The translations under genes and the position numbers were made by a program. From the IMG/VR virus record IMGVR_UViG_3300028422_000701: a DNA stretch of 64,000 nucleotides. One strand, 5' to 3'. The notes under the pieces were generated by a model. The model was given only the letters and a program-made list of their open reading frames with translations. It did no database searches and was not told the DNA's origin. Positions 28,240 to 50,742 of the stretch are shown piece by piece. Origin of the DNA: a virus (Duplodnaviria > Heunggongvirae > Uroviricota > Caudoviricetes). Position 1 is the stretch's first letter, and every line of letters starts with the position of its first letter.

Positions 28240-29086
28240 CTCCTGCTACTGTAAAATCTACTTTAGTAAGGTCTGGTGTAAAACCATCATTACCACAACG
28301 ATTTTTATAATGACAGTATTTACATTTTGATATTTTAATAGTACGTGGTGGTAGTTGTTCTAATTTTTGGTAAGTTTTAACATTTTCTATTTCTCCTATT
28401 ACATCTTGTTTAACTTGTCCGTCAACAAAAAATTCAATAGGTAGTAACTTTAAGTTGTCCCTGTTTTCGTACACATAAAGTATATTATCAATACCTAAGG
28501 CAATACTATATGCCCCACCCTGTCTTTGGTGTTCTTCATAAGGTACACGTTCAACTTCTTTGTACTTAACTGTCCATTTATAGTTACCCATAGTTTTAAT
28601 TTCTATAATATAATAAACACCTTTTATTTTTACAATACCATCACATAAAAATCTAGCACTTATTATATCATTATAAAGTTTAACTTCATTACCTTGTCTT
28701 TCAATTACTTGGGTTTGTAGTTCAGGGTGTTCCTCTAAGTATTGAATAGGGTCTACCCATTCTATGTCAAACCCATTTTCTTTCATTTTCATAACAATTT
28801 GTTGTATACGTTCATGTCGGTCTGTACCAGTTTGTAACATACTTAGGTTAGGTCCAGCCTCACTTGGAGGTCTGTTATCGGGTTCTTCTTCTATACCTTG
28901 TACCTTGTAATATAACTGTCTAGCACAACCACCAAGACTACTTGGACTAAACATATCTTTTTTTGGCATTCTTGGTGGGTTCATTTTTTGTTGTGTACAG
29001 TAAAAAGCATATTCAAATTGTTCAGCAATAGACTTAGGTTTAGTTGCTTCACGTATTAATTTAGCAAGTATATTACCACTACTCAT
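28217..29086 (-). CDS. Cas4/RecB-like PD-(D/E)xK exonuclease with Cys cluster
   Basis: N-terminal GGCARQ Cys plus C-terminal CKYCHYKNRC; central D/E/K nuclease core. Confidence 0.55.
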   Translation of the reverse strand: MSSGNILAKLIREATKPKSIAEQFEYAFYCTQQKMNPPRMPKKDMFSPSSLGGCARQLYYKVQGIEEEPDNRPPSEAGPNLSMLQTGTDRHERIQQIVMKMKENGFDIEWVDPIQYLEEHPELQTQVIERQGNEVKLYNDIISARFLCDGIVKIKGVYYIIEIKTMGNYKWTVKYKEVERVPYEEHQRQGGAYSIALGIDNILYVYENRDNLKLLPIEFFVDGQVKQDVIGEIENVKTYQKLEQLPPRTIKISKCKYCHYKNRCGNDGFTPDLTKVDFTVAGDDEDGEE

Positions 29087-30161
29087 TAGTATTACCTTCT
29101 GTTAATGGGGCAAGTATTTGTACTAAATTAGGGGTTTTAATAAATATAGGGCTATAACCTTCACAGTAACCAATAGTTATATTAGTTTTTTGTTTATTTA
29201 TTAAATCGCTTAGTGCTTGTACGTCAAGTAACACATTTAAACTTATAGGTATTTCAGCAACGTCAGTTGTTAAAACTTCTTGTGTACCTTTAGTGTCTTG
29301 TAAACAAAGTTTATCATCAACTGTTTTTAAATAAATAGTATTGTTTGAAAGTATTTTAACTCTGTCAATAATATTTTGTATGTTACTTAATGTGTCAGTT
29401 AATAATAATGTTTGTGTAAGTTCAAATTCTTTAAAATTTAGGTAGTTAGGGTAATCTCCCTTACCTGGCTGTTCACCACCATATATAGTGTAGTTATCAC
29501 TAACTATCATTACTACACCATCTTGTTGGTATAAATTAATATCTACTGTACCATCTATTGTAAGTAATAATTCTACCATTCTTTGTGTTAAGTAAAATGG
29601 TGTTGTGAAACTGTTGGCTAACCCTGTTGCAATACTTAATTTAATACCGTCTGTTGTAACAATATCTTTATCATTCAAGTAATAACCCATTAACATAGGG
29701 TTAACAATTAATTTACCCAAAGCGGCACTTGCAGTATCAAAAAGTAATAAATCTTTTATATTAAGTTTACCACTTACTACTTCTTCACTTGTAACATCAA
29801 GTAACGCAGGTTCAGGTACTATGTCAGTTAATATATCCATCTTATAAACACCATTACCTATTATTTCAAGTAATGTATTATTGTGTTTAAGTGTTATTGT
29901 TTCCGTTGTAATTTTTTGTACTAATTTAATAAACTGCTCCCCCATAATACTATAAGTATCTTCTTGTTCACAATCTACATTTAAACTAATTAAATACGTG
30001 TTGTTACCATCACTTGTATAAAATGTAAGTTGTTTGTCTTTTAGTTTAATAGTAATATAGTTAGTATATGGTACTATTTTATTACTGCCAAGACCTTTTA
30101 ACAATTTACGGGTTACATTTTGTAGTAATATCGTATTTAATGTTATCTTTTCATATTCCAT
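29079..30161 (-). CDS. dnaN: bacterial-type DNA polymerase III beta sliding clamp-like protein
   Basis: about 360 aa, three-repeat architecture, N-terminus MEYEKITLNTILLQNV; ATG 30161 after aggagg RBS. Confidence 0.5.
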   Translation of the reverse strand: MEYEKITLNTILLQNVTRKLLKGLGSNKIVPYTNYITIKLKDKQLTFYTSDGNNTYLISLNVDCEQEDTYSIMGEQFIKLVQKITTETITLKHNNTLLEIIGNGVYKMDILTDIVPEPALLDVTSEEVVSGKLNIKDLLLFDTASAALGKLIVNPMLMGYYLNDKDIVTTDGIKLSIATGLANSFTTPFYLTQRMVELLLTIDGTVDINLYQQDGVVMIVSDNYTIYGGEQPGKGDYPNYLNFKEFELTQTLLLTDTLSNIQNIIDRVKILSNNTIYLKTVDDKLCLQDTKGTQEVLTTDVAEIPISLNVLLDVQALSDLINKQKTNITIGYCEGYSPIFIKTPNLVQILAPLTEGNTNE

Positions 30162-30171
30162 TTTGTTCCTC

Positions 30172-31103
30172 CTAAAATAATGTATTTTGTTTTGGTTTTG
30201 TACCATAAGTACAAACGTTATCTTTTGCTTTTTGTTCTAAGTACTTTATGTTAAATAAAGTTCTCTTCTTGTAGTCTTCACTAAGTTCCTCAATGGTATA
30301 ACCAAACTTATTTACATAACTAGTTATTGCCTTTTGTACTGGTAATGATTGGTTAACAAAGTGTTGTTTTTTGTTGGTACTTTTGTCACTTAATAGTATG
30401 GCACCAAAGTCTGACATTACACCACCATTAGCACTTTGCATAATCCAACTACTTGCGTCTGCACTGTATAATGGAAATTGTGCTATTAAATCAAAGTCTT
30501 GTACCCCTAAGGCATGAACCTTAATATCAGGATTTTTGCTATGTTTAATAATTTCAAATATCTTATGCAACTTAGCAACCTTTTCTGCCTTTGTTTTACC
30601 TACTATATTTCCAATAGCAACTAAATCTACTTTAGGTTCAAAGTTAAGTATATTCTCTAAATACATAGTATTACTACCAGCATGAAATACAGGAACAAGT
30701 TTTTGTGGACTTTTTACTTTACCATACATATATAAAAAGTTTTCCCACGTTTTCTTATTAGCTTCTAAACGTTCCTGACTTGTAGCATTTTTACCCAATC
30801 TGCCTGGTATTGAATCTACTTCCATAAAGTAACGTAAACCATCGTCCCATTTATTAACGTAAGCAATGTATTCATCTATGTCTACACTAACACCACGTGT
30901 CCAAGCAGTGAATGCACCACTATCTAAAAAAGTTAATTTACCTGCTGCACAACGTTTCTCAAATGGTCTTTTATCGTTCCAGTAACTTAATAACCTGTGT
31001 AGGTCTTGTTGGTCTATATACTCGTCAGCTTCAGGACACTGAACCGGACGCCAGCAAAATAAATATTAAAAGGTTTTTTATCTTTTAAATTGTTGCTGTT
31101 CAT
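30172..31103 (-). CDS. dpdA: DpdA-like (TGT-family) 7-deazaguanine DNA transglycosylase, 5' end disrupted by a +1/-1 frameshift
   Basis: ATG 31103 opens a 29-codon frame ending at 31014; the overlapping frame 31065 to 30172 contains FLDSGAF (TGT DSG motif) and VHALGV. Confidence 0.55.
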
Positions 31104-31108
31104 AATCA

Positions 31109-31819
31109 TCACTCTCCTTTATATTTCCAAATATAACCCAAACCTGTCTTGTTTACACCTTGTAAACACTTACCAATAGTATCAACACAACAATTATTAT
31201 CTTTTGCCGCTTGTACTATACTTGGATAACTATTTAAAAATTTTCCTTCTTTACTATATTGTTCTATTTCTTTACCCATAATTAATTTACAGTTTTTATG
31301 TGCTAGTATTTCTGGTAACAAATAAACCTCGTGTTCATATAACCATACATACCCCTTACATAATATTTTATTACGACAAGCATAATTAATACTATTATAA
31401 TGAACCTTCATTTGTTTGGCAGCTATACCACTACTTTCAAAAATGTTTATTTGGTTACCATTTAAATCGTATTGTAAAACTGTTTTACTTCTTTTGTTGT
31501 CCTTACCACTATTAACAGGACAAGCATCCCCACCTATTGTTGAATTAAAACCTTTATTATAACTATTATATAAATCAACATAGTAAATTTCTTTTTGTTT
31601 TAACTCTTTCATTGTGTTTGCATTATCTATAACTTCCCACGTAAAGTAATCTTTTGGATATTTACTTAGAGCCTTTTGGAATTTGTGGTTCTTTTTAAGG
31701 TCGTAATAATGTTTTTTAATACGTTCTTTTAAGGTATGGGTAGTTATTCCAATATAAACTCTTCCATCTTTATGTGTGCATTTGTAAACAATGCCTTCCA
31801 TATTATTCTCCTTTCTCAT
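31109..31819 (-). CDS. GIY-YIG homing endonuclease
   Basis: GIVYKCTHKDGRVYIGITT GIY-YIG motif. Confidence 0.65.
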   Translation of the reverse strand: MRKENNMEGIVYKCTHKDGRVYIGITTHTLKERIKKHYYDLKKNHKFQKALSKYPKDYFTWEVIDNANTMKELKQKEIYYVDLYNSYNKGFNSTIGGDACPVNSGKDNKRSKTVLQYDLNGNQINIFESSGIAAKQMKVHYNSINYACRNKILCKGYVWLYEHEVYLLPEILAHKNCKLIMGKEIEQYSKEGKFLNSYPSIVQAAKDNNCCVDTIGKCLQGVNKTGLGYIWKYKGE

Positions 31820-31889
31820 TACTTAAATTATACCATATCTGTGGTGAAATGTCAAGTAATATAAATAAAAAAAGTTGGTTGTTCACCAA

Positions 31890-32174
31890 CTATTTTTTAA
31901 GTAGTTTTACATTTACTCTGTCACGGTAACTACCATTATTTATCCATAATCTATATTCTTGATGTATTTCAAAACAGTGTGGATAGTTAATGTCTTCGTT
32001 GTAACATATAGACATCTCTTCATCAATTATGGGTATAGTAACATATTTGTGGTCTTTACTTAAAACTACACCACATTTGTATTCTCCATTAAAGTATTCG
32101 TTTTCTATAAGTATGTAATAATCTTCATAGGGTATATTTTCCTGTTTAAGGACCTTTATAACCTCGTTTAACAT
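31890..32174 (-). CDS. hypothetical protein
   Basis: ORF. Confidence 0.35.
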   Translation of the reverse strand: MLNEVIKVLKQENIPYEDYYILIENEYFNGEYKCGVVLSKDHKYVTIPIIDEEMSICYNEDINYPHCFEIHQEYRLWINNGSYRDRVNVKLLKK

Positions 32175-32395
32175 TACTTAATAAATAGGTAACCAAACAC
32201 TTTTAAAGCCGTGTACATACCCATTATACCCATAATACCACTAAAACTAATAGGGTGGGTAGCAAACCTGTATAACCCACTTGTTTCACTTGGTACACCA
32301 AATATGCGTGTACAAATAAATAGTACCATAAAACTAACTACAAATCCTATTATAAATAATATAGGGGTATCCCAACTAAATATTTCTTTTAGCAT
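32174..32395 (-). CDS. small membrane protein
   Basis: two TM segments. Confidence 0.35.
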   Translation of the reverse strand: MLKEIFSWDTPILFIIGFVVSFMVLFICTRIFGVPSETSGLYRFATHPISFSGIMGIMGMYTALKVFGYLFIK

Positions 32396-32868
32396 TTAGC
32401 ACCTCCAAAGTAAATTAAAAATCTCCAATTACTATTATCAATACGTTTCATTTTTAAGTCTTTAACCTGTTGTTTGTTATCATAATACATTGTTAACTGT
32501 TTGTTAACTAAGTCACTTGCCTTTAAGTCAGGGTATAAAGCAACTAATGTAGCAAGATCAACATTGTTAAGGTTGGTATAAGTTTGTTGTTCATAATTCA
32601 TATAATTACCAACTATTTTAGTGATACCAACTTCTATATCAGCATTTTCTACTTCTAGCATTTCTATTTTTTGGTTTATTGTAGTATTGTCAAGTAGTTT
32701 AAAACTAACGGAGAATAATAAACCTACCATTACAAAAAATGCTACCACAAACAGTGTGCCACCAATACCCAAAAATGTTTCTTGGGTATTATTATCATAC
32801 TTAGCATTGTCCCCCTTTGCTACAATAAACACACCACAAATCATTATTAGTAAACATATAATTACCAT
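32389..32868 (-). CDS. membrane protein
   Basis: two TM segments. Confidence 0.35.
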   Translation of the reverse strand: MVIICLLIMICGVFIVAKGDNAKYDNNTQETFLGIGGTLFVVAFFVMVGLLFSVSFKLLDNTTINQKIEMLEVENADIEVGITKIVGNYMNYEQQTYTNLNNVDLATLVALYPDLKASDLVNKQLTMYYDNKQQVKDLKMKRIDNSNWRFLIYFGGAKC

Positions 32869-32880
32869 ATTATTTCCTCC

Positions 32881-33648
32881 TTATAATATTATATTACCTT
32901 CACTTGGTTTAATGTCTCTTTGTAATAAGTAAAGGTATGCATCTTTAATATCATTTTCTTCTTTAGCACCACGACCATATGTACCGTTGTCAATTTGTGT
33001 CATAACAAGTTTTAAGTAAGCCATAACGTCACTTAATACATCGTCACTAAATTTCATACCATTTAGCATAAATGCAATAACTTTTCTAACACATGGTTTA
33101 CATTTAAAACAAGGTTTTCCATCGTGTGGGAAGTAACAACTAAAACTGCCGTTCCATGCTTCTTCTAGTGTACCACCTTTGTCTAAATACATTTTAAGTA
33201 ATTCACGTTTAGTGTATTCTTTAAAGTCTACATTAATACGTATATTACGTTCTTCAGTCCAGTGTTGTTTTTGGTACAAGAAACTAAATAGTTCTCCTGC
33301 CTTTTGTGCGAACTCAGGACTCTTATCTAAAACTCTGTCCCCGTAAGTTGCACCCAAACATATTTCATCGCCATAGTTAGTTGCTATAGCAGTAAAATAT
33401 AAGTTACGTAAAGGAATTATTTTATCTTCCCTTTCAATACTATGTAGGTTAAGTACATCTTTTAGTACAATAACATCACTATCTAGTTTACTTATTTCTT
33501 CTTTACTATAGCTACTATTAATATCTATGTATAGTTTTACATCAGGTTCCCATATTTTACTTATTAACCAACTATCCATACCACCACTATAAAGTAGTAC
33601 TTTTTTACTTTTTGGGTTAAAGTCTGTCATAACCATTACCCCTTTCAT
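32881..33648 (-). CDS. queC: 7-cyano-7-deazaguanine (preQ0) synthase
   Basis: PP-loop LLYSGGMDS; C-terminal zinc cluster CYFPHDGKPCFKCKPC. Confidence 0.65.
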   Translation of the reverse strand: MKGVMVMTDFNPKSKKVLLYSGGMDSWLISKIWEPDVKLYIDINSSYSKEEISKLDSDVIVLKDVLNLHSIEREDKIIPLRNLYFTAIATNYGDEICLGATYGDRVLDKSPEFAQKAGELFSFLYQKQHWTEERNIRINVDFKEYTKRELLKMYLDKGGTLEEAWNGSFSCYFPHDGKPCFKCKPCVRKVIAFMLNGMKFSDDVLSDVMAYLKLVMTQIDNGTYGRGAKEENDIKDAYLYLLQRDIKPSEGNIIL

Positions 33649-33904
33649 TATCGGCTTTTATTTTACCTTTAATATTTTTTAATCTTTGTTCAATACGTTT
33701 TATAATAACATTTTGTGCTTCCTCCATTGTGGCATACATAAAGTTTTCGTTAGTGTGTGTTGTACCGTTAGACACAATTTCATAACAAAGATTATTGTCT
33801 CTATCAATAGCCATACCCGTAACAGTATATTTATAAATGTTATCTTTATACCATAATTCATCGATTACGTATACATCTTGTCCTAGTTTAAATTTTGGTT
33901 CCAT
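33617..33904 (-). CDS. hypothetical protein
   Basis: ORF. Confidence 0.35.
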   Translation of the reverse strand: MEPKFKLGQDVYVIDELWYKDNIYKYTVTGMAIDRDNNLCYEIVSNGTTHTNENFMYATMEEAQNVIIKRIEQRLKNIKGKIKADNERGNGYDRL

Positions 33905-33905
33905 A

Positions 33906-34136
33906 TTATCTTTCTCCTTTTAAAATTAAATATTCATCTACAGCTCTAATAGATTCTACTACTTTATCAAGTAGTTCTATTAGTTTCTTTTCTTGGTTAA
34001 TATCTAAGTTGTTGTGTTGTATACCCATAACATTAACTTCATTATCAACCATATAATCTACTTTTTTATGGTCAGTAATAAATGTTGTATTACCCCACAA
34101 TCTAATATCGTAATCAGTTACACTTCTTTTTTCCAT
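33906..34136 (-). CDS. hypothetical protein
   Basis: ORF. Confidence 0.35.
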   Translation of the reverse strand: MEKRSVTDYDIRLWGNTTFITDHKKVDYMVDNEVNVMGIQHNNLDINQEKKLIELLDKVVESIRAVDEYLILKGER

Positions 34137-34147
34137 ATTAATCCTCC

Positions 34148-34567
34148 TTATTTAAAGTATGCTTTATTATGGTAGTCAACTAATTCATACTGTGTTAAAT
34201 CAGTACCAATTAATTCTTCAGGTGTTTTAGTAGGGTTACTTACAATACATTTAACAACGGCGTGTAAACCGTAATGTAATTGTAAACCTATTGTTTTACT
34301 TGTAATGCCTGTAATGTCACGTATGTCTTCCCATACTTCTTCATTACCGTAAGGTCTTTTACCGTCCATTTCCATAGCACCAAACTCACACCCATTATTA
34401 CTTATAAAGTATGCACGTCTTAAAAGTAATAAATGATAGTTAGTTAATACGTGTGTATTTATTTTTTCTTCATTTTTGTTAATAAGGTTAAGTTCTTTTA
34501 AAACCTCATCTCCATATTCATCTTGTATTAAAGCAATTGCCCTTTTGGCTTCTTTACTTAATTCCAT
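34148..34567 (-). CDS. hypothetical protein
   Basis: ORF. Confidence 0.4.
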   Translation of the reverse strand: MELSKEAKRAIALIQDEYGDEVLKELNLINKNEEKINTHVLTNYHLLLLRRAYFISNNGCEFGAMEMDGKRPYGNEEVWEDIRDITGITSKTIGLQLHYGLHAVVKCIVSNPTKTPEELIGTDLTQYELVDYHNKAYFK

Positions 34568-34624
34568 ATTACCCTCCTTTATATTACTATTATACCATAT
34601 TAATTATAGAAAGTAAAGGACTTA

Positions 34625-35071
34625 TTAAATAAGCCCTTGTTTTTCAAGTTTTTCTAGTACTTCGTTACGTTTATTGGTATTCCATACCATATTCATATGT
34701 CTATTACCAACTTCATTACGTACTTGATTTCTTGCAATTTTTCTATTATAAACAGTAAATTGTTTATTTTTACCACTACCAACAACTTCAACACCTAGTT
34801 TTGTTTTAAGTTGTTTACCATTTTTATCCCTGTTAAAAGGGTATATAAGTGTGTTCTTACCTAGTGTTTTACAAACATTTAAAGCATGGTTTAACTTTAG
34901 TTGTCTAATGGTATATTTAACTAGTTCCTTAAGGTTGTTAACTACTGTGTCTTCATTAGTAGTTGCATCTTTAATACTAACTGGTTCAATACCTTCCTTC
35001 GTTAGTTGTTCTTTAATTTCGTCAAGATCTGCATAAACATATCCAGCTGTTCTTAATTTTTTGTCGTCCAT
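34625..35071 (-). CDS. hypothetical protein
   Basis: ORF. Confidence 0.4.
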   Translation of the reverse strand: MDDKKLRTAGYVYADLDEIKEQLTKEGIEPVSIKDATTNEDTVVNNLKELVKYTIRQLKLNHALNVCKTLGKNTLIYPFNRDKNGKQLKTKLGVEVVGSGKNKQFTVYNRKIARNQVRNEVGNRHMNMVWNTNKRNEVLEKLEKQGLI

Positions 35072-35072
35072 A

Positions 35073-35615
35073 TTAATTCTCCTCTTTTATCATAATGTGA
35101 TTTAAGTTACGTTTTAAACCATTATCATCTAAACCATAACCATATACAAATAAGTCATCTATTACATATAACTTCCAATCAGGTATATATACTTTTTTAC
35201 TAGGGTCTATTGCTTTATCTAAAAGTACACACGTATTAATACTTACAGGATTCATTTTCATAAGTTCTTCAGTAACTGCTTTTAACGTAACCCCAGTATC
35301 ACAAATGTCGTCCATTATAATAACATGACAACCACCCACATCAGGTAATTTAGTTTCTATCTTTAATTTACCTTGTTTGTTGTCAGTGTAGCTTTTTACC
35401 TTTATAAATTCAAGTGTATGATCAGTAGTTAACTTACGTGTTAAGTCACTTACAAAGTGCACACTACCGTTTAAAATACCAATAATAACAACTTTATTTT
35501 CTTCGCTTGCTTGTATTTTTAATTTTAAATACTCGTCAATATCTATAGCTAAATATTTTAAATCGTATTGTAGTTCCTTACTATTTATTAAAACATTTTT
35601 ATTCTTTTTAAACAT
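35073..35615 (-). CDS. hpt: hypoxanthine-guanine-type phosphoribosyltransferase
   Basis: PRPP-binding motif VIIMDDICDTGVTL; ATG 35615 after aggagg RBS. Confidence 0.65.
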   Translation of the reverse strand: MFKKNKNVLINSKELQYDLKYLAIDIDEYLKLKIQASEENKVVIIGILNGSVHFVSDLTRKLTTDHTLEFIKVKSYTDNKQGKLKIETKLPDVGGCHVIIMDDICDTGVTLKAVTEELMKMNPVSINTCVLLDKAIDPSKKVYIPDWKLYVIDDLFVYGYGLDDNGLKRNLNHIMIKEEN

Positions 35616-35625
35616 TTTGTTCCTC

Positions 35626-35910
35626 CTAGTACCTACGTACATCTTTTATTCTTATATAGTCTCCACTACATTTTTGTAGTGTAATAATTTCACGTAAAAT
35701 AAGTTCTCCAAATGTAATTATAAGATACCAACTTGTTTCGTTTATTGGCAAGTTGGTAACCTTATACCCTACATTTTTGGTGTTAAGTATTAAACTATTA
35801 TATTCGTCTACTGTTAATATTTTATTTACTTTTGGATACCATAAATCTTTAGCTTTATAACTCATCTTGTATGTCTTCTCCATACCAACGTTCGTTAATT
35901 TCACCATCAC
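35626..35910 (-). CDS. hypothetical protein
   Basis: ORF overlapping the polymerase start. Confidence 0.3.
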   Translation of the reverse strand: MMVKLTNVGMEKTYKMSYKAKDLWYPKVNKILTVDEYNSLILNTKNVGYKVTNLPINETSWYLIITFGELILREIITLQKCSGDYIRIKDVRRY

Positions 35911-38125
35911 ATTTAATAGGCATCTTTAGTTTAATATTAGCAGCGTCTTTCATTATTTGTACCATTATACTTAACGCCTCCTTAGCATTTTCTTTTGGTA
36001 CTTCCCCAATTACTTCATCATGTATTGTAAGTAATGTCTTGTACCCAAGTTCACGTAATCTTTCATTTCTGTATAACATAAGTATTGCTACTTTAGTTAT
36101 ATCAGCACTACTACCTTGTATTGCACTATTTAGTATTTGTCTTTGTGCCTGTGCTATAGCTGTACCATTATCAATAATTTTAACTCTAAAATGTTGGGCT
36201 ATTTCAGGCATTCTTTTTCTAGCCTCCCATTTGTTAAATTGGTTTAACATATTACGGGCACTTTCACATAATGTAGGATCTTGTCCAGTAATACTAAATT
36301 GTGGTAAGTTATAATCAGGTAGTCTTCTTTTTCTTCCCCATATAGTTTTAACAAAACCTTTTTGTCTAACTAATTCTTGAAGTTGTTGTTCAAAAACTTT
36401 AATTGAAGGATAAGTTTCGTAGAAACGGTTAATAATATCCTTAGCTTCATCAACAGACGTTTTTATTTGTTCTGCAATACTTGCAGCCCCACGCCCATAT
36501 AAAATACCAAGTAAAACACTTTTAACATAACCTCTACGTTGTTTAGCTTCAGGACTAAATTTTTCTAAACATTCTTCATAAGGTAGGTTGTATATTTTAC
36601 TAGCCATGTCACTATATAAATCTTTACCTGTTGTATAGGCTTCAATCATATGTGGGTCTTGGGCTAGAAATGCAGTAAGTCTTGGTTCAATTTGGCTATA
36701 GTCAGCTCCTATAAAATAATAACCTTCTTTTGGTATAAACATTTTACGTATGTCTGTATTATGGGAAGGTATATTTTGTAAGTTAGGGTCACTACTACTA
36801 AATCTACCTGTATCAGCTCCATATTGGTTAAACTTACCGTGTACACGTCCAGTATTAGGACTAATACTTTTATTAGGTAGTTTATCAATATAAGTTCCAA
36901 GTAATTTTTTTAATCCTCTATATTCAAGTAACTTAGTTATCATTTGGTTAAGTTCAGGGTATGCCTTACCAACTTTTGCCAATTCTTTTTTACCAACACT
37001 TTCCTTTTTAAGTCCTACTTTTAAATAATCTACTTTTAATATTTTAAATAATAAAATATTAAATTGTGTAGGACTATCTAGGTTAACAGGGTCATTAAGT
37101 TTACTATATAACTCAGGTTGTTCCTGTTTAAATTGTGGTAAATAAGGGTTTATTAAGTTACTAACAAGTTCATTTAATTCTATAAAACAAGCATCTATTT
37201 GTTCAGTATACTTAACACTTAACTCATGTGCATATTCTATATCAATACTAACACCAGTATCCTCCATACTTGCTACTGCCTCAGTAAGTGGGGCTTCTAT
37301 TTGGGTAAATAAATAACCAGTATCTACTAAATCTTGTTCTATACAAGGCTCACTAACACCATCTAAAAATGGTAATTGGAATTTGTATAGTTCGTATGTA
37401 GCCCACGCATCAAATGCTGCATAGTAATACACACGGTTAGGGTCTAGTATGTCAAAGGTTAAATGTCCAAATAGTTTTTTATAATTATCAGGGTCTATTG
37501 TTTTCTCAGGTGTACCTAAACAATATTTTTCCCATAACCATTTTAAGGCATGAGAACTGTCGTTTTCGTTTAAAAACTTACCTGCAATAAGACAGTCCCA
37601 ATAAGGTCTTATGTATTCATTTCCTTTGTAGGCATTGTTTATGTATCTAAGGTCAAAGGTAGCATTGGCAAATAATACTTTTAATTTACCATTTCTACTT
37701 AAATCTATAATACTTTTTATAAAGTTAGTTGCGTCTATATTAGGGTAGTTTAAATGTCCAACAGGTACATACAAACTTGTCTCCCCCTCAGTGTATAAAC
37801 ACAAACCAACTAGTTTGTCGTCAATTGGGTTTAAGCCAGTTCCTTCTGTATCTAAAGATAAAACGCCTGTTTGAATTATCTTTTGTAAGTAATCATTCAG
37901 GCGTTGTTCATCTTTACATAATTCCAATACCACGTCAGGTCTTTTATGTTGTAGCCTTGTTACGTACTCGTCCATACGTTTATAACATTCTTCAACATCT
38001 TGTACCCTTGTTCTAACTACACGTACTTGTTTAGGCTTTTTAGCTTTATCAATTACTTCTTTAGCAGTTAGTTTTGGTGTTGGTTGTTTAACGGCAATGC
38101 CAGCAAATAAACTATTTTGGTTCAC
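35855..38125 (-). CDS. family A DNA polymerase (Pol I-like) with 3'-5' exonuclease domain
   Basis: Exo I LSLDTEGTGL; motif A DYSQIEPR; motif B RRGYVKSVLLGILYG; motif C TIHDEV. Confidence 0.85.
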   Translation of the reverse strand: MNQNSLFAGIAVKQPTPKLTAKEVIDKAKKPKQVRVVRTRVQDVEECYKRMDEYVTRLQHKRPDVVLELCKDEQRLNDYLQKIIQTGVLSLDTEGTGLNPIDDKLVGLCLYTEGETSLYVPVGHLNYPNIDATNFIKSIIDLSRNGKLKVLFANATFDLRYINNAYKGNEYIRPYWDCLIAGKFLNENDSSHALKWLWEKYCLGTPEKTIDPDNYKKLFGHLTFDILDPNRVYYYAAFDAWATYELYKFQLPFLDGVSEPCIEQDLVDTGYLFTQIEAPLTEAVASMEDTGVSIDIEYAHELSVKYTEQIDACFIELNELVSNLINPYLPQFKQEQPELYSKLNDPVNLDSPTQFNILLFKILKVDYLKVGLKKESVGKKELAKVGKAYPELNQMITKLLEYRGLKKLLGTYIDKLPNKSISPNTGRVHGKFNQYGADTGRFSSSDPNLQNIPSHNTDIRKMFIPKEGYYFIGADYSQIEPRLTAFLAQDPHMIEAYTTGKDLYSDMASKIYNLPYEECLEKFSPEAKQRRGYVKSVLLGILYGRGAASIAEQIKTSVDEAKDIINRFYETYPSIKVFEQQLQELVRQKGFVKTIWGRKRRLPDYNLPQFSITGQDPTLCESARNMLNQFNKWEARKRMPEIAQHFRVKIIDNGTAIAQAQRQILNSAIQGSSADITKVAILMLYRNERLRELGYKTLLTIHDEVIGEVPKENAKEALSIMVQIMKDAANIKLKMPIKCDGEINERWYGEDIQDEL

Positions 38126-38835
38126 TAGAACATTTTAGCTGGTGAATTTGTATTGTTTGTTTGTGTAGGTGTTGTAGGCATAACAATATTAGGGTTAACA
38201 TTAAATTGTGTTGTTTGTGGTTGAACATGTTGTGAATATGCATTCATTATATTAGTACTTGTTTGGTTGGTGTTTAGGTTTAATGTACCTTGTGCTGCTT
38301 GAATCATTTCTTCTTCAGTTAACTCAAGTACAAAACCTTTGTGTCCATCAACTATTTTTTTACGTTCAGGTAAGTTAGGTACTGCACTATTAATAGCTGA
38401 TACCACAGGTGATATAAAGTATTTAGTGTCCTTACTACCTCTATTACCTTGTCTTGTAATGCTATATGGAATCTTATTTAAAGCTCCATTTTGGTTCATA
38501 AATACTATTAATTGTTCAATATGGTTTTTACCTCTATCCCAAATTAATACTTCTTCTGTACCTTCTTTTACAAGTTGAATCATAGCTCTTAACATTGGTT
38601 TATAACCAGAACGTGCTAATGCGTCGTTGTCACTGTTTTGTTTTACATATCTTTCCTTGTCTCCAATTTTAATTTTGTAAACAATAAACCAGTCCAATTC
38701 GTTAGGGTTATCCCCATATAAGAATCTAACCACGGCACTGTCACCGTTGTTTTGTAGGTTAAAGAAACTTGTACCTCCATTGTTACCATATTTTTTTAAT
38801 GCATCTTCAAGTGATAAGTTTGTGTTGTTGTTCAT
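38125..38835 (-). CDS. hypothetical protein with Q/N/T-rich C-terminal tail (possible ssDNA-binding protein)
   Basis: position beside the polymerase; low-complexity tail ending in F. Confidence 0.3.
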   Translation of the reverse strand: MNNNTNLSLEDALKKYGNNGGTSFFNLQNNGDSAVVRFLYGDNPNELDWFIVYKIKIGDKERYVKQNSDNDALARSGYKPMLRAMIQLVKEGTEEVLIWDRGKNHIEQLIVFMNQNGALNKIPYSITRQGNRGSKDTKYFISPVVSAINSAVPNLPERKKIVDGHKGFVLELTEEEMIQAAQGTLNLNTNQTSTNIMNAYSQHVQPQTTQFNVNPNIVMPTTPTQTNNTNSPAKMF

Positions 38836-38840
38836 ATTTT

Positions 38841-39275
38841 CTAATCCTCCTCTGTGTAAGTTGCGAAACTTGTTGGTGTTTCGTATAATTTAATTTCTGT
38901 TACCTTCATACCTACTGGCAATGCCTCATTTATATCTTTAAACATAATACGACTCATGTTTTCACAAGTAGTTCTACAACCTATTACTTTATTTTTGTAA
39001 CCAAGTTCTTGGATATATTTTAAAATAGGTTCGTCACCACAAGCAATAAATGCGTGGTCATATTTTGATAAGATAGCTTCTTCTACGATAGATTTTAAGT
39101 TTTTAAAATCTATTATCATACCCTCTTTAGGGTGGGCTGTAATACTTTCAACTACTGGACCTGTTAAGGTTACAAATAGTTTATAAGTATGTCCATGAAT
39201 ATTTTTACATAAACCATCATGATTTAGTAATTGGTGAGAACAGTCAAAACTGTACTCTTTTGTTACGGTTAACAT
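38841..39275 (-). CDS. queD: 6-carboxy-5,6,7,8-tetrahydropterin synthase
   Basis: CSHQLLNHDGLCKNIHGHTYKL (Cx..HGH zinc motif). Confidence 0.7.
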   Translation of the reverse strand: MLTVTKEYSFDCSHQLLNHDGLCKNIHGHTYKLFVTLTGPVVESITAHPKEGMIIDFKNLKSIVEEAILSKYDHAFIACGDEPILKYIQELGYKNKVIGCRTTCENMSRIMFKDINEALPVGMKVTEIKLYETPTSFATYTEED

Positions 39276-39557
39276 ATTATTCCTCCCTTTAATAAGTTGT
39301 AGCCCCCCACCAAACTACATAATACTGTACCCATTATTAATGGTTAACTAACCACCATGTCAACAGTATCCCAATAAATTAATTATACCACAATCTTGTT
39401 AGAATGTAAATACTTTTTAACAACTTATGAGTTGTTTATATAAATCATAAGCCACACTCCAACCAAGAAATGCAGCAAGTGTTGTAATAAGGGCTATGAC
39501 AATAGCAGCTACCATTACGGCAAACATTTTTTCATCTTCGCTCATATGTAATCCTCC

Positions 39558-40244
39558 TTATTTAATTGCTTGTAAAAATCTTTCTTCTAAGTGTTTATCA
39601 GTTCTAAATACACCTCTTGTACTTATAGTAACTGTACTACTATCAAATGGTGCTTCAACTCCTCTGGCTGTCATACAAGTATGTGTTTCTTCTAAACAAA
39701 CAATTACACCTTGTGCGTCCATTTCTTCCATTAAAGCATTTGCTATTTGATCACTTAGTCTTTCTTGTAGTTGGAAACGTTTAGCGTAACCTTCTACCAT
39801 TCTAGGTATTTTACTTAAACCAACTACTTTTTTATTAGGTAAATAACCAATACTTACATAACCATAAACAGGTAATACGTGATGTTCACAAACACTACGG
39901 CATTCAATACGTTTAACAATTACAATATCGTCATTACCACTATCTTTAAAGTTATAATCTAGGTCATCGTCATCTAAGTTAAATTGTACTTCTAAGTAGT
40001 CTTTAGGATTTTCACAATAACCTCTTGTCATTTCAAGCCAAGCTTTAACTACTCTAAAAGGTGTGTTTTTCATACCATTACTTTCACTATCACCACCACA
40101 AATGTCAATAAGTTTAGCAATACTAGGCATGATTTCGTTTTCTATACTTTCCATTATATCGTTATGGTCACCACTGCCTTTAATAATAACTCTATTTATG
40201 AGTAGTTTATTTATTTTTTCACGTTGTTTTTCATTTAATTCCAT
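39558..40244 (-). CDS. folE: GTP cyclohydrolase I
   Basis: CEHHVLP zinc-binding motif plus a D/N-rich insertion. Confidence 0.75.
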   Translation of the reverse strand: MELNEKQREKINKLLINRVIIKGSGDHNDIMESIENEIMPSIAKLIDICGGDSESNGMKNTPFRVVKAWLEMTRGYCENPKDYLEVQFNLDDDDLDYNFKDSGNDDIVIVKRIECRSVCEHHVLPVYGYVSIGYLPNKKVVGLSKIPRMVEGYAKRFQLQERLSDQIANALMEEMDAQGVIVCLEETHTCMTARGVEAPFDSSTVTISTRGVFRTDKHLEERFLQAIK

Positions 40245-40253
40245 ATTTCCTCC

Positions 40254-41021
40254 TTACACGCCCTGCCTATTACCCCATACCAAAGTATGAAGTTGTAACA
40301 TAACATAAACGTCTTCCATATCACTTTCTAAAACCTTGGTAACAAGTTTTTCATAATCTTGTATTACCCTGTTTCGTACATTTAATATATCTTGTTCCCC
40401 AACGTCAGTGTTACCAACATTTAAGTACAATTTTATACCAGTTCTATTTGTACGTAGTTTAATATCTTGTATTAAGTTATAGTATCTACGAGCAAATTCA
40501 AAATCCTCGTCGTTAAATACTGGTATTTTAATTGTAACAGGTAAATTAAAACGTACTTTAGGATTATACATTAACCAATTACCTACGTTATCAATTACAT
40601 CAGGTTGTCCACTAGATGGTGCTTTTGGGCTAATAACCACATTGTCTACCTTGTCTAGCCAATCAGGTAATTTACTACCTTGTGTTTCAACATCCACTTT
40701 AATGTCAGCTTCATGTAATGCATTAATAACTTTACTAAAGTCATATAAACAAGGGTTACCACCTGTTAGTACAACATTTTTTGTATTTGTGTCTTGACAT
40801 TTAATTATTAATTCAAATAGTAGTTCATCTTCAGTATACACTTTTGTGTCATTATTTCTCTTCCAAGCAAACTTACTATCACACCAACTACAATTAAAAT
40901 CACACCCTACAACTCTAACAAATAAAGTTTTTTTACCTGTGTTAGGACCTTCTCCTTGTATTGTAGGACCTCAACCGAACACTTCGGCAACAGGTATTCT
41001 TACTGTTCTTTCGGTATTCAT
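40254..41021 (-). CDS. queE: 7-carboxy-7-deazaguanine synthase (radical SAM) interrupted by an in-frame TGA
   Basis: ATG 41021 gives MNTERTVRIPVAEVFG, then TGA (plus-strand tca 40971-40973), then GPTIQGEGPNTGKKTLFVRVVGCDFNCSWCDS continuing into the annotated ORF. Confidence 0.7.
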
Positions 41022-41587
41022 ATGTTATCACTCTCCTTTATATGTTTCCACGAACGGTTGTTATAAATATCCCATATAGTAGCATATTTTATATTAGGAT
41101 ACTTTTTACAAACGTCTTTTAAACATATCTTTTTATATTTCATATTTTTAATGTCTTGTACTATATTAACATTAAGTAAACAGGCTGGGTTGTCTACCCC
41201 TAACCGATTACGTAAATGAGTTCGTATAGCGTGTTGTGTATTTTCTTTAGCGGTTACCCATTCTAAGTTGTTAACAAAACAATTATTTTTGTTGCCATCA
41301 ATATGGTTAACCTGTGGTAAATTATCAGGATTTGGTATAAAAGTTTGGGCTACCAATATGTGAACTAAATGTTGTTGTTCCTTACCATCTTTACATAAGG
41401 AAACAACGGGGTATCCGTTAGGTTTAAATGTATTTTTCTTTATAACACCTTTAAACGTACGAAGTCTACCCATACTATCTGTGTAAGTTCTATCAAGACT
41501 TCTTACTGTTCCATAATTAGATATCTCATACCAACCTTCATAGTTAGGAATCGGTTTAAATATTTCTGCTACTGGTATTTTAACCAT
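41018..41587 (-). CDS. HNH homing endonuclease with AP2-like DNA-binding domain
   Basis: GWYEISNYGTVRS AP2-like; NHIDGNKNNCFVNNLEWVTAKEN HNH_3. Confidence 0.6.
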   Translation of the reverse strand: MVKIPVAEIFKPIPNYEGWYEISNYGTVRSLDRTYTDSMGRLRTFKGVIKKNTFKPNGYPVVSLCKDGKEQQHLVHILVAQTFIPNPDNLPQVNHIDGNKNNCFVNNLEWVTAKENTQHAIRTHLRNRLGVDNPACLLNVNIVQDIKNMKYKKICLKDVCKKYPNIKYATIWDIYNNRSWKHIKESDNI

Positions 41588-41647
41588 TTTTACTCCTCCT
41601 TAACTATAAATAAATTATACCATATTAACTTCTGAAAGTAAATATCT

Positions 41648-42631
41648 TTAATTAAATAACATACTATTTTCACAAGTTAATAATTGTGCAGGTGTTAAAT
41701 CATTAATATCCTTACACCCTTTTGGAAATATAAATCTTGTTACAAGTTTATATTTTATTTTTTGGTTTAACATATTGGCTCCAATTTTACCTGCCTTATC
41801 ATTATCAGTTGCCACTATTATGTGGTTAACAGGTAAATTTTTTATTAAGTCTAATTGTTGTGGTGTAGGAACAGCTTGCATCATTGCTACAGCAAGTTTA
41901 CCATAACTCCATAAATATAAAGCATCAATTATACTTTCAACTACATACACACATGATGTGTCCATAAGACTTAATTGTGGATTGTTTAAATGTTCATTTA
42001 CTTTATCAATAGCATATAAGGTAGTTCCTTTACGTCCATCGTTATCATTTATAAACATTTTAATTTTGGTACATCTTTTTTGTACCATAATACATTTAGA
42101 ATCTATATTATAAACTGGAAAACATACAACCTCGTTAATGTGGTCATAACTAATTTTAAAATATTCTAGTATAGCCGCATTTAACCCCCTATTAAGTAAA
42201 TACCAGTTATTATTAACATTATAATCAGTGTCCGTAGGTAAGTCACAATAAGTTATAGGTAAGTCCGGTTTATTTTCTTTAAGTATATTTATAACTGGGC
42301 GTTCCTCTTGGGTAAACATAAAATGTTTACTTAACCATATCATGCCATAATGACCTTTATCGTCGTAACCAAACACATAGCTAATTAATTCAGTTAAATC
42401 AACTGTTTTGTTACAAGTAAAACAGTGACACACACCTGCATCTTGTTTACCTTTACTATCTAGTAATATACCCATACTTGGATGTTGTTCCATACCATTA
42501 CCATGATAAGGACAACTAAACATAATGTTATCCCCTGTTTTTTTAATCTTTGTTAAAAAGGTAGATTTATAAAAGTGTAATTCTTGTAATAAAGTGTCAA
42601 ACACTTCTTCTATATTTAAGTACTCTAACAT
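41648..42631 (-). CDS. DnaG-like DNA primase
   Basis: zinc ribbon CPYHGNGMEQHPS...CHCFTC; TOPRIM-like IVATDNDKAG. Confidence 0.6.
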   Translation of the reverse strand: MLEYLNIEEVFDTLLQELHFYKSTFLTKIKKTGDNIMFSCPYHGNGMEQHPSMGILLDSKGKQDAGVCHCFTCNKTVDLTELISYVFGYDDKGHYGMIWLSKHFMFTQEERPVINILKENKPDLPITYCDLPTDTDYNVNNNWYLLNRGLNAAILEYFKISYDHINEVVCFPVYNIDSKCIMVQKRCTKIKMFINDNDGRKGTTLYAIDKVNEHLNNPQLSLMDTSCVYVVESIIDALYLWSYGKLAVAMMQAVPTPQQLDLIKNLPVNHIIVATDNDKAGKIGANMLNQKIKYKLVTRFIFPKGCKDINDLTPAQLLTCENSMLFN

Positions 42632-43945
42632 TTAAAACACCTCACTACTACTAATATGTGTAGCCACTACTGGTGTATCCTCAACACTTGGGTCTACAAA
42701 ATCTTGAAATATACCATAGTTAATATTCCACAACATTTTAAACCCAACTTCCTTGTCCCCATTAGTGTTCTTACGTACTATTACATTAAGTACATCCTTG
42801 TTAACGGCAAATGTAATTACCTTAGTACTGTTATGAGCCACACCGTCGCTCTCGCTAAGGTCTTCTAACTTAGGGGGATCCAATATACCCGACTCGGTTA
42901 ATCCCGCGCTATTCCTGTTAGTTTGGCTATTTACAAGTATAGGTATATTAATTGTTTCTACAAGTAAACGTAAGTCTTCCATTATGTGGCTATATTTAAG
43001 TCTTTCACTATCGTTACGCTTACCTCTATAGTCCTCCATTAAACTTAATTGGTCAAGTACTACAACGTCAGGCTTATATTTTTCAATTAACATTTTTAAC
43101 CTATTTACGTCAAGTCTATTACCACCTAAGTGTTTTGGTGTTACAACAATAAAAGGTATATCATTAGTACTTAGGTCAGCTACATATTTAAAATAAGTTT
43201 CTTTATTAACGTCTGTGTTGTCTCCAAGTTGTTCTTCACCATATAGTAAACCCTTATTACTAAAATTCTTATTTAAGGTGTCAAATCTAAAACCCATAAT
43301 AGTTTCATTCATTTCTCCACTATAATACAAAATACTTTTACCACTTTTCCACATATTGTTTGCTATTTTTAAACTTAAGAAACTTTTACCTTGATTAGTT
43401 CTTGCTGCAAGTACAACTAAGTCGTTCTGTAAAAAACCACATATAATGTTGTCTAATTGTATAATGCCAGTTGGAACTCCAAGTGCTCCTTTGTTATTAA
43501 TAGCTTGTTGATATGCATTAGCACGGCTAACATCTTTTATAATATTAACCCCTAAAGGTTGTTTACTTTGTATATTACGTATTTGTTCTACGTGTGAAGC
43601 AAGCACGTTAAATGCTTTTATACTGTCCTTACCACTTAGTTCGGTTCCCCATATTTTTGCAGTGTCAAGTTGTAACCTATAAATTAAATCTTCGGCAAAC
43701 TTACTAACTAAGTAACTATCCGTTTCATCTACTTGTATAATGTCAAAGTCATTAAACTCATTTAAAAATGTAAGGGTATCAGGAACCTTACCATAAGTTT
43801 GGTAGTGGTTTAATATAAATTGTAGTTCCTGTTTATACGTGTCACTAAAATCATTAATATTTATATTATTGTTATATAGTATTGACACATCTTTAGTACT
43901 TAATATTTTATTTATTATTTGTACTTCTATCATTAGTTCCACCAC
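42632..43945 (-). CDS. DnaB-like replicative helicase
   Basis: Walker A AARTNQGKSFLSL; RecA-fold C-domain; 437 aa. Confidence 0.7.
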   Translation of the reverse strand: MVELMIEVQIINKILSTKDVSILYNNNININDFSDTYKQELQFILNHYQTYGKVPDTLTFLNEFNDFDIIQVDETDSYLVSKFAEDLIYRLQLDTAKIWGTELSGKDSIKAFNVLASHVEQIRNIQSKQPLGVNIIKDVSRANAYQQAINNKGALGVPTGIIQLDNIICGFLQNDLVVLAARTNQGKSFLSLKIANNMWKSGKSILYYSGEMNETIMGFRFDTLNKNFSNKGLLYGEEQLGDNTDVNKETYFKYVADLSTNDIPFIVVTPKHLGGNRLDVNRLKMLIEKYKPDVVVLDQLSLMEDYRGKRNDSERLKYSHIMEDLRLLVETINIPILVNSQTNRNSAGLTESGILDPPKLEDLSESDGVAHNSTKVITFAVNKDVLNVIVRKNTNGDKEVGFKMLWNINYGIFQDFVDPSVEDTPVVATHISSSEVF

Positions 43946-48114: not shown

Positions 48115-48191
48115 TGGTGCTCCCGATAGGACTCGAACCTACAAGACCTTGTTTCTAAGACAAGGATGTTTACCAGTTTCATCACAGGAGC
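48115..48191 (-). tRNA. tRNA with anticodon UAG (Leu anticodon) but class-I (short variable arm) shape
   Basis: acceptor GCTCCTG/CGGGAGC plus A plus CCA; anticodon arm CCTTGT-CTTAGAA-ACAAGG; T-arm GTAGG-TTCGAGT-CCTAT. Confidence 0.55.
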
Positions 48192-48196
48192 ATATT

Positions 48197-48276: not shown

Positions 48277-48281
48277 ATATA

Positions 48282-48373: not shown

Positions 48374-48474
48374 ATGAAGTGTAAGGTACGTACTTTTGAA
48401 AGGTTGTTTCCCTATGTCTTAGGTAGAGCCTTACGTACACTAAGACGTATATGTAGATAATAAGTATACAATTT

Positions 48475-50205: not shown

Positions 50206-50742
50206 TTATTTATGTTTATTCTTTATATAACATTTACCACAAGCTGGAACATATTCATTATTACCAACTAATACCTTACCTTTTATATCATTACCTCTGT
50301 AAAGGGTAAATTTGGCAGGTTTATTACAGTAATAACAAGTTGCGTCATAAAACGTTATCTCGTCGGCTACTGCCATAATATTAGGCATTATACCAAATGG
50401 TTCTAATTCACTTGTCATTGCTAAACCTGAAATATAAAAGTCTTTGTCTTCATATAAAGACATATCAGTAATACTTTTTACATCCCCAGTTAAAAATTGA
50501 AACTCATCAATAAATATAGTTGTAACATTAGGTTTAAGTGTTTCTTTTAATTCTTTTAAATCCTCTATTAAAGTAGCTCTTAGTTCAGTAGTATTATTTC
50601 TACTTTTAATAATACCATAATCCCTATTGTCAACTTTTGGTTTATAACATTGTATAATATCTTTATTCCACATATTGTTATATACGTTAAGTAAACCGTT
50701 AGTTTTACCACTAAACATAGGTCCTGTGTAAACTCGTATCAT
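50206..50742 (-). CDS. tdk: thymidine kinase
   Basis: GPMFSGKT Walker A, C-terminal zinc ribbon CYYC...CGKC. Confidence 0.8.
   Translation of the reverse strand: MIRVYTGPMFSGKTNGLLNVYNNMWNKDIIQCYKPKVDNRDYGIIKSRNNTTELRATLIEDLKELKETLKPNVTTIFIDEFQFLTGDVKSITDMSLYEDKDFYISGLAMTSELEPFGIMPNIMAVADEITFYDATCYYCNKPAKFTLYRGNDIKGKVLVGNNEYVPACGKCYIKNKHK

Follow-up and report, generated by a model that had tools for sequence, protein, structure and literature searches.

An HPRT-type phosphoribosyltransferase gene as a recurrent partner of phage 7-deazaguanine DNA-modification clusters

Here, we describe a gene for a hypoxanthine-guanine phosphoribosyltransferase (HPRT) family enzyme in the IMG/VR virus record IMGVR_UViG_3300028422_000701 (Caudoviricetes), of which we analysed a stretch of 64,000 nucleotides, hereafter the window. 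The window covers most of a phage genome of ~65 kb, with a GC content of about 30%, that is known as a metagenomic contig. Structural genes occupy the first 23 kb on the plus strand and are followed by a replication block on the minus strand; the phage also carries an array of 25 tRNA genes. The HPRT gene lies inside the replication block, among the genes of a 7-deazaguanine DNA-modification system, and its pairing with deazaguanine operons recurs across many unrelated phage lineages. HPRT is an extra, previously unlisted component of phage deazaguanine DNA-modification clusters.

The minus-strand block starts with DnaB, a primase, an HNH endonuclease, QueE, FolE, QueD, a single-stranded DNA-binding protein and a family A DNA polymerase (PolA). 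It continues with a small open reading frame (ORF), HPRT, four small ORFs, a QueC-like protein and three further small ORFs, and it ends with a GIY-YIG endonuclease, DpdA, a clamp-like protein, an exonuclease, RecU and RecA. HPRT thus lies between the QueC-like gene and PolA, as the initial annotation of the window had stated. The preQ0 synthesis genes FolE, QueD, QueE and QueC are all present, with QueC represented by a divergent homologue, and the DpdA-family transglycosylase that marks a phage deazaguanine system is there as well (PHROG 887; 34-42% identity). In tblastn comparisons, the window DpdA shares 42% identity with its counterpart in Bacillus phage Flasso, 34-38% with the proteins of Streptococcus phages Dp-1 and MS1, and 34% with the DpdA of Pseudomonas phage Iggy. 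PolA is nearest to Flasso (38%) and to Clostridium phages, with identities of 36-39%. From the similarity of DpdA and PolA to those of Flasso, Dp-1, MS1 and Clostridium phages, we conclude that the phage is new and that its host is a Gram-positive bacterium of low GC content. The coordinates of these and other features are collected in Table 1.

The HPRT reading frame spans 35073..35642, and the ATG at 35615, which was also chosen as the start when genes were called independently on the source contig (Logan SRR7216773_5709457; 65,196 bp), gives a protein of 180 amino acids. The phosphoribosyl pyrophosphate (PRPP)-binding signature that had drawn attention to the gene, VIIMDDICDTGVTL, is found in this protein, and the PRPP-loop motif, MDDICDTGVT, has the acidic pair and the xxDTGxT pattern of type I phosphoribosyltransferases (PRTs). 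Database matches go far beyond chance. The protein matches Pfam PF00156 with E=3.9e-24, and its best NCBIfam family is TIGR01203 (HGPRTase; E=4.6e-36, 124.1 bits), which exceeds the next kind of PRT by ~85 bits. The equivalog cutoff of TIGR01203 (150 bits) is missed, and the score against NF006605 is likewise below its cutoff (95.5 versus 181 bits); we read this as the profile of a divergent member of the family, not of another family. A phmmer search of Protein Data Bank (PDB) sequences returned 60 chains, nearly all of them HPRT, HGPRT or HGXPRT (best E=5.8e-19, 72 bits). An AlphaFold2 model built from a 22-sequence alignment (pLDDT 87, pTM 0.85) had only HPRT or HGPRT chains among its top 50 Foldseek matches in the PDB, with TM-scores of 0.77-0.87. 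Together with the active-site residues described below, these results bear out the annotation of the protein as an HPRT-type 6-oxopurine PRT.

To compare active sites, we aligned the window protein with solved HPRTs and about 240 homologues, and we number residues as in human HPRT. In HPRTs, Asp137 contacts N7 of the purine and Lys165 contacts O6. The active site of the window HPRT is intact: it retains S103-Y104 of the flexible loop, the acidic pair E/D133-D134 as Asp-Asp, D137, K165, F186-V187, D193 and R199. The roles assigned to these residues are the same as those of their counterparts in Bacillus anthracis HPRT (EDIIDSGLT as loop III, Lys131 at O6, a cleft formed by Phe152 and Leu158, and Arg165), as described in the eLife paper on (p)ppGpp and HPRT (PMC6783271). 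Bacterial Hpt proteins (TIGR01203; Escherichia coli 1G9S/5KNR, B. anthracis 3O7M/6D9S, Thermoanaerobacter tengcongensis 1R3U) have the type I PRT fold in common with the window HPRT and are like it in the PRPP loop, the loop Ser-Tyr, the catalytic Asp, the O6-binding Lys, the stacking Phe, Asp193 and Arg199. Unlike them, the window HPRT scores below the equivalog cutoff (124 versus 150 bits) and is phage-borne, inside a DNA-modification and replication operon instead of a cellular context such as tilS-hpt-ftsH.

The position of the gene in the deazaguanine cluster had been thought meaningful from the outset. That view stands, since the pairing recurs in many phage lineages, although the meaning then proposed for it, the salvage of a deazapurine, has gained no positive support. 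We scanned IMG/VR with an alignment of the clade and obtained 80 HPRT loci, whose six-frame ORFs within ±10 kb were searched by phmmer and jackhmmer. Deazaguanine synthesis genes together with a transglycosylase were found at 41 of the 80. A further 17 have synthesis genes only, each with less than 5.8 kb of downstream flank and thus cut off on the transglycosylase side, and five have the transglycosylase only and are cut off on the upstream side. Four are left with conserved HPRT-PolB synteny alone, and the 13 loci with neither deazaguanine genes, transglycosylase nor PolB synteny all hold canonical cellular-type HPRTs. Of 80 loci from a scan of JGI metagenomes, which is less biased by the search motif, 15 were linked and the others cellular. 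We also looked up other representatives from a library of 1.84 billion proteins. Further linked cases are L004/L005, L091, L093, L095, L099 and L101 (locus labels are our own), while the representative P0056 is an ordinary bacterial tilS-hpt-ftsH gene that is not linked, and one contig was too short to judge.

The linkage is close, and its form differs between lineages. In the largest clade, 0-4 nt separate the HPRT stop codon from the start of PolB, and HPRT follows QueE by 0.5-1.3 kb. HPRT adjoins or overlaps FolE in L007, L008, L053, L068, L083, L084 and L093, and QueE in L045, L075 and L091. A TARA contig has the order QueC-QueE-HPRT-FolE. In L093, an overlapping QueD-QueE-FolE-HPRT-DCD operon shares one contig with a DnaE-type polymerase and a DpdA3 transglycosylase; this polymerase (PHP/Pol III alpha) carries an intein and an HNH domain. 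The remote homologue P0006, which is 36% identical to the window HPRT over the full alignment and 43% across the BLAST-aligned 78%, is encoded on a 74-kb contig in a module of gp32, RecA, DnaB, ribonucleotide reductase (RNR), FolE, QueD, QueE, HPRT, PolB and a 417-aa protein resembling tRNA-guanine transglycosylase (TGT). The replication modules that accompany the pairing are therefore of the PolA, PolB and DnaE types.

Neighbouring genes were identified by clustering followed by tblastn against deposited phages, as an earlier pass using window queries had missed divergent QueC and DpdA3 proteins. A family of ~260 aa in L007, L008, L045, L053, L075, L093 and L099 is DpdA3, with matches in Cellulophaga phage phiST, in Campylobacter phages CP220/CP21 and to the ‘DNA guanine transglycosylase’ of Flavobacterium phage immuto. 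Another family, of ~300 aa, is QueC and shares 64% identity with the immuto QueC. HPRT is thus accompanied by three transglycosylase types, namely the Dp-1/Flasso-like DpdA, the 417-aa TGT-like protein and DpdA3, and it is found in clusters with QueC and in clusters without it. HPRT lineages that had seemed free of a transglycosylase proved to have DpdA3 on this second search. A DNA transglycosylase is present at every linked locus with enough flank, with the sole exception of L095 (JGI 3300055294 Ga0554530_0006983, 17.6 kb). There, HPRT, QueD, QueE and FolE lie within 6 kb, no transglycosylase homologue was found in flanks of 7-10 kb, and a 702-aa protein without a family match is also encoded. 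L095 is a candidate for an unrecognised transglycosylase or for a transglycosylase-free route.

The 417-aa protein of L004, with equivalents in about 43 loci (e.g. L013-L086, L101), is conserved ~5 kb downstream of HPRT. It has a marginal match to Pfam TGT (27.5 bits) and is weakly similar to hypothetical jumbo-phage proteins, but it matched no PHROG and no annotated DpdA among the deposited phages. Its flanking genes encode a GT1/GT4-like glycosyltransferase and a protein resembling cytidylyltransferases, and QueC was not detected within 10 kb. The protein may represent an undescribed subfamily of DNA transglycosylases.

Within the purine pocket, the linked enzymes are not uniform. The N7-contacting Asp, which the window HPRT has, is invariant in 53 of 53 linked sequences. 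The O6-binding Lys165 is replaced by Arg in 51 of the 53, with Lys kept only by the window protein and L045, and the stacking Phe186 is replaced by Trp in 33, while the window enzyme keeps F186. Residue 194 is Asp, Asn, Glu or Ser in marine linked HPRTs versus Tyr, Leu or Phe in canonical ones; in some linked HPRTs it is Leu or Arg. The changes of the marine clade at positions 165, 186 and 194 may reflect a shifted base preference. The window HPRT has DNGLK after Asp193 where its bacterial relatives have Y(N/D)(E/D)YK; over a longer segment, LDDNGLKRN in the window and LDDNKLKRN in the related phage fragment P0002 stand against LDY[N/D][E/D]YKRN in bacterial relatives, and resemble the marine linked clade. 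We considered GYGLDDNGLKRNL as a strict marker of deazaguanine linkage and discarded it, because LDD..LKRN also occurs in a bacterial tilS-hpt-ftsH gene and position 194 is L or R in some linked HPRTs. The replacement of the classic ‘LKG’ (human K68) by ‘LNG’ is not special either, Asn occurring in 53 and Lys in 39 of 104 canonical-type representatives.

The closest relatives of the window HPRT come from two sources. P0002, 50% identical to it, is encoded on a 1.4-kb fragment of a related phage, and to either side of HPRT this fragment is syntenic with the window. Cellular hpt genes (P0076, L102-L106) are 47-51% identical, lie on contigs of 24-28% GC and adjoin EngA, RpiB, DHH pyrophosphatase, RsgA and CoaBC. 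In a full-length alignment, the window HPRT and the marine phage clade are 28-38% identical. In 200 neighbour-joining bootstraps, either P0002 or the bacterial P0076 came out as sister of the window HPRT in essentially all replicates. These sisters, and scores of 131 bits against a marine-clade hidden Markov model (HMM) versus 148 bits against a generic HPRT HMM, do not support membership in the large marine phage clade. Most simply, they suggest that the gene was captured from a low-GC host lineage, independently of the marine phage HPRTs; as the tree does not resolve the deep branches, a common ancestry with the latter may still apply. If the same pathway did recruit HPRT independently, the case for a functional link is the stronger for it.

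Among deposited phages, we found no counterpart. Megablast of the 11-kb cluster gave no match, and tblastn of four linked HPRTs against 50,697 deposited phage records (INPHARED) returned the same 18 doubtful records only. These (e.g. AFYI01000001.1, OR846589.1, MT838304.1) include a record of Salmonella enterica of 289 kb, contigs that are labelled ‘Listeria/Staphylococcus/Enterococcus phage’ but lack annotation, and fragments of faecal ‘Bacteriophage sp.’, all of which look like host DNA or unverified contigs; INPHARED holds no bona fide cultured phage with such an HPRT. Flasso is like the window phage in its module order of DnaB, primase, PolA, preQ0 genes, DpdA, clamp and exonuclease, yet it has QueC-QueD-QueE-FolE-QueF and DpdA without HPRT. 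Dp-1 and Iggy also combine DpdA with FolE/QueD/QueE/QueC-type clusters like that of the window, and the DpdA3 systems of phiST, CP220 and immuto_2-6A resemble the uncultured HPRT lineages in DpdA3 and in the QueC shared at 64% identity with immuto; an HPRT is missing from all of these characterised phages, Iggy included. Full-text searches found no paper linking HPRT to phage deazaguanine systems, and the term ‘phosphoribosyl’ is absent from the two reference papers on these systems (Hutinet et al., 2019; Cui et al., 2023). The HPRT family itself is ordinary, and it is its recurrent recruitment into deazaguanine operons that appears to be undescribed.

What HPRT might do in such operons is suggested by the chemistry of the pathway. 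FolE consumes GTP, and QueD, QueE and QueC lead on to preQ0 (PMC6112128; Cui et al., 2023). DpdA swaps guanine in DNA for the deazaguanine via a covalent intermediate, and it catalyses [14C]guanine exchange, so that guanine is both its leaving group and a competing substrate (PMC10164549). The only small molecules common to all linked clusters are GTP, as input, and guanine, as by-product. Because HPRT connects this by-product with this input, we propose that the phage keeps an active HPRT-type enzyme as an accessory of its 7-deazaguanine DNA-modification pathway, where it recycles the guanine ejected by DpdA, and we give this proposal a probability of about one half. On this model, FolE, QueD, QueE and QueC would turn one GTP into one preQ0, which DpdA would exchange for guanine in phage DNA, releasing the free base. 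The phage HPRT would convert this guanine, along with hypoxanthine and guanine from the breakdown of host nucleic acids, to GMP (or IMP) with PRPP; host Gmk and Ndk would raise GMP to GTP, which would re-enter FolE and close the loop. HPRT would also act as a sink that keeps free guanine low, lessening its competition with preQ0 at DpdA. DpdA-derived guanine would then be the relevant substrate, and its recycling or removal the selected benefit. The intact N7-contacting Asp, the abutment with FolE in several lineages and the presence of a transglycosylase wherever flanks allow all fit a recycling role. The fallback of the initial annotation, ordinary guanine salvage that boosts the dGTP supply, comes closer to this than its main idea did, but it is too generic: the operon linkage with FolE and QueE, and a DpdA that both releases and accepts guanine, argue for a salvage coupled specifically to the modification pathway.

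Several observations weigh against this proposal. The motif used for IMG/VR was derived from the clade, so the 63 of 80 linked loci overstate the linked share among all viral HPRTs. Linked HPRTs deviate at the purine pocket (Y194 to D/N, and in marine ones K165R and often F186W), which could mean an altered base specificity, and we infer the substrate for the window enzyme and for every linked HPRT. HPRT is absent from Flasso, Dp-1, Cellulophaga phiST, Campylobacter CP220 and Flavobacterium immuto; because these cultured phages have the same pathways, HPRT is dispensable, and host Hpt or Gpt could substitute for it. Finally, this assembly shows an in-frame TGA in queE and a change of frame in dpdA; if these are real, the pathway served by HPRT may be impaired in the window phage.

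The salvage of a 7-deazaguanine base to the nucleotide level, the main idea of the initial annotation, has found no positive support, and we consider it unlikely. In this explanation, the enzyme is a deazapurine PRT analogous to TubE or ToyH, which joins preQ0 (or, without QueC, 7-carboxy-7-deazaguanine, CDG) to PRPP and so provides a ribonucleotide, then a deoxynucleoside triphosphate (dNTP), to the adjacent polymerase or for some other role. TubE, proven to couple CDG to PRPP within a cluster containing FolE, QueD and QueE (PMC6112128), and ToyH, the proposed preQ0 PRT of toyocamycin synthesis, are its only precedent: as in the window, a PRPP-dependent transferase stands beside homologues of FolE, QueD and QueE, and the QueD-QueE-FolE-HPRT operon of L093 is formally similar. 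However, the Tub and Toy clusters make free nucleoside antibiotics and have no enzymes for insertion into nucleic acids, whereas the phage clusters carry a DpdA-family transglycosylase wherever flanks suffice (L095 excepted). The authors of TubE aligned it with the archaeal GpT-2 type of Sulfolobus solfataricus (PDB 4Z1O; PMC6112128 supplement); to this chain, compared in place of the TubE and ToyH sequences themselves, the window HPRT gives only a weak match (E=3.2e-6, 30 bits, versus 5.8e-19, 72 bits, for HPRTs) and falls outside the TubE lineage. The pocket changes K165R, F186W and polar 194 of linked HPRTs are in favour of a deazapurine substrate, as are the polymerase gene that neighbours HPRT both in the window and in the largest clade, the dCTP-deaminase/dUTPase-like, MazG-like and dGTP-diphosphohydrolase-like neighbours in some lineages, and a route through modified dGTP that Hutinet et al. 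(2019) left open. These features concern mainly the marine and DpdA3 lineages. K165 and F186 are both retained in the window enzyme, and the N7-contacting Asp is invariant in all linked sequences. According to published work, recognition by HPRT depends critically on N7, and 7-deazaguanines are not substrates (PMC8136771). A single enzyme type would moreover have to serve clusters that yield different bases (CDG, preQ0 and probably preQ1 derivatives), the window phage has no RNR or nucleoside monophosphate (NMP) kinase to turn the ribonucleotide into a dNTP, and Cui et al. (2023) argue for post-replicative insertion of all phage deazaguanines. We hold it similarly improbable that linked HPRTs have been retuned to preQ0 or CDG and make deazaguanine ribonucleotides, such that some phages load deazaguanine into DNA at least partly before or during replication via the adjacent polymerase. 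Were it true, loading through the nucleotide pool would contradict the view of a solely post-replicative base exchange, and the pocket changes (polar 194 in nearly all linked sequences and, for the marine clade, K165R and F186W) would belong to that nucleotide route, as would the dNTP-hydrolase-like neighbours.

Generic purine salvage, in which HPRT boosts GMP and IMP for RNA and DNA from host breakdown products without any tie to deazaguanine, is possible but rather doubtful. The window phage carries a thymidine kinase too, its HPRT resembles a normal enzyme taken from a low-GC bacterium, and replication modules often gather RNR, ThyA and dUTPase, so that the position of the gene might reflect mere clustering of nucleotide genes. 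Clustering alone poorly explains why, in several lineages unrelated to one another, HPRT directly adjoins or overlaps FolE or QueE. In addition, the 50,697 deposited phage records hold no convincing HPRT phage without deazaguanine genes, and HPRTs without deazaguanine neighbours on viral contigs are canonical and cellular-looking. A regulatory or counter-defence function, with an HPRT that evades feedback by (p)ppGpp or GMP or restores purine nucleotides after a depletion defence, seems very unlikely to us. Host HPRT of Firmicutes is inhibited by basal (p)ppGpp (PMC6783271), and the segment after Asp193 differs from that of the nearest bacterial relatives, yet the Lys in ‘KLKIE’ seems to align with B. 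anthracis Lys81, a tetramer-interface residue tied to (p)ppGpp sensitivity. The gene has no link to known defence or anti-defence loci, and this function would leave the specific linkage with FolE and QueE unexplained.

The guanine-recycling proposal bears on how these systems are described. Phage 7-deazaguanine modification is currently presented as base synthesis plus DpdA, and the expelled guanine and the resupply of GTP are not considered. DpdA3 phages replace every G, and it is for them that the fate of guanine and the resupply of GTP matter most. The repeated, apparently independent recruitment of HPRT suggests a third module, for precursor recycling and product removal, which could set the attainable level of modification. 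HPRT also offers a concrete gene with which to ask whether any deazaguanine enters DNA via the nucleotide pool, and such an enzyme might raise the heterologous output of deazaguanine-modified DNA.

The lesions in queE and dpdA both lie near the 5' ends of the genes. In queE, a TGA at codon 17 (about 40970-40972) precedes the radical-SAM cysteine motif (..VAEVFG*GPTIQGEG..CDFNCSWC). The ATG at 41020 has a good ribosome-binding site, and the next in-frame start, GTG at 40841, would remove the cysteine motif. An alternative genetic code was rejected, since TGA terminates seven ordinary genes and is internal to no other real gene. In dpdA, the frame changes near 31040-31050, ~20 codons past the apparent start ATG at 31103. 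The segment at this ATG, MNSNNLKDKKPFNIYFAG, matches FNLYFAG of Flasso, and the downstream segment, QCPEADEYIDQQDLHRLLSYWNDK, which lies in the second frame, is also homologous to the N-terminus of Flasso DpdA; gene callers give only the final 217 aa. The frame change may stem from a sequencing error or a programmed frameshift, or dpdA may be a pseudogene. The GIY-YIG and HNH genes end at or overlap the starts of dpdA and queE, respectively, and a group I intron around them was discarded because 29000-43000 had no Rfam match. Assembly error, recoding or decay may underlie the two lesions, all being compatible with the data.

Table 1. Features of the window and of HPRT loci on other contigs (positions in the window unless a locus is given)
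Feature	Position	Strand	Evidence or remark
HPRT-family 6-oxopurine phosphoribosyltransferase	35073..35615	-	Pfam, NCBIfam and PDB matches; AlphaFold2/Foldseek
Shine-Dalgarno AGGAGG	35622..35627	-	Read from sequence; 6 nt 5' of HPRT ATG
Family A DNA polymerase (PolA)	35855..38125	-	Pfam DNA_pol_A_exo1, DNA_pol_A; ~240 nt upstream of HPRT
QueD (6-carboxytetrahydropterin synthase)	38841..39275	-	Pfam PTPS E=3.6e-32; NCBIfam QueD 83 bits
FolE (GTP cyclohydrolase I; GTP-consuming first step)	39558..40244	-	Pfam E=2.3e-57; NCBIfam FolE above cutoff
QueE (7-carboxy-7-deazaguanine synthase)	40254..41020	-	NCBIfam Bsubt_queE E=1.8e-38; start ATG 41020
Divergent QueC-like ATPase, PP-loop SGGMDS	32881..33648	-	Pfam QueC E=9.8e-11; PHROG 1550 ‘QueC-like’ E=2.3e-17
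DpdA DNA guanine transglycosylase, Dp-1/Flasso type	30172..31103	-	tblastn; PHROG 887 E=1.6e-27
GIY-YIG homing endonuclease	31109..31819	-	Pfam GIY-YIG/NUMOD1; directly upstream of dpdA
HNH homing endonuclease	41018..41587	-	PHROG 59 E=1.4e-50; NUMOD4/HNH_3; directly upstream of queE
148-aa ORF, no family match	34625..35071	-	Immediately 3' of HPRT
Thymidine kinase	50206..50742	-	Pfam TK E=5.8e-29; within tRNA array, distant from cluster
25 tRNA genes	48115-54207	-	
417-aa TGT-like protein	L004 16095-17348		
DnaE-type polymerase	L093 9814-13986		
dNTP-related neighbours	L093 4919-5389; L053 11219-11722; L099 773-1252, 2824-3261, 3725-4051; L007 11176-11787		
PHROG 17812 protein	L004 14531-14881; L093 6206-6553; L099 1313-1660; about 45 other loci		

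Some further genes deserve mention. The 148-aa ORF next to HPRT has no Pfam or PHROG match, and it also neighbours HPRT in the related phage fragment L090 by tblastx synteny. In DpdA3-type lineages, genes of the dCTP-deaminase/dUTPase superfamily, MazG-like (PRA-PH) genes and ‘dGTP_diPhyd_N’ genes adjoin HPRT or FolE; if any of their products hydrolyses dGTP, this would bear on the route to complete replacement of G. No dNTP hydrolase was found in the window phage, where thymidine kinase is a second nucleotide-salvage gene. The tRNA array in which that gene is embedded holds tRNA-Asp(GTC), tRNA-Asn(GTT) and tRNA-His(GTG), three of the four queuosine-bearing anticodon families; tRNA-Tyr was not found. 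A protein of ~115 aa (PHROG 17812, to which no function is assigned) co-occurs with HPRT and deazaguanine genes, and does so in the TGT-like as well as the DpdA3 lineages.

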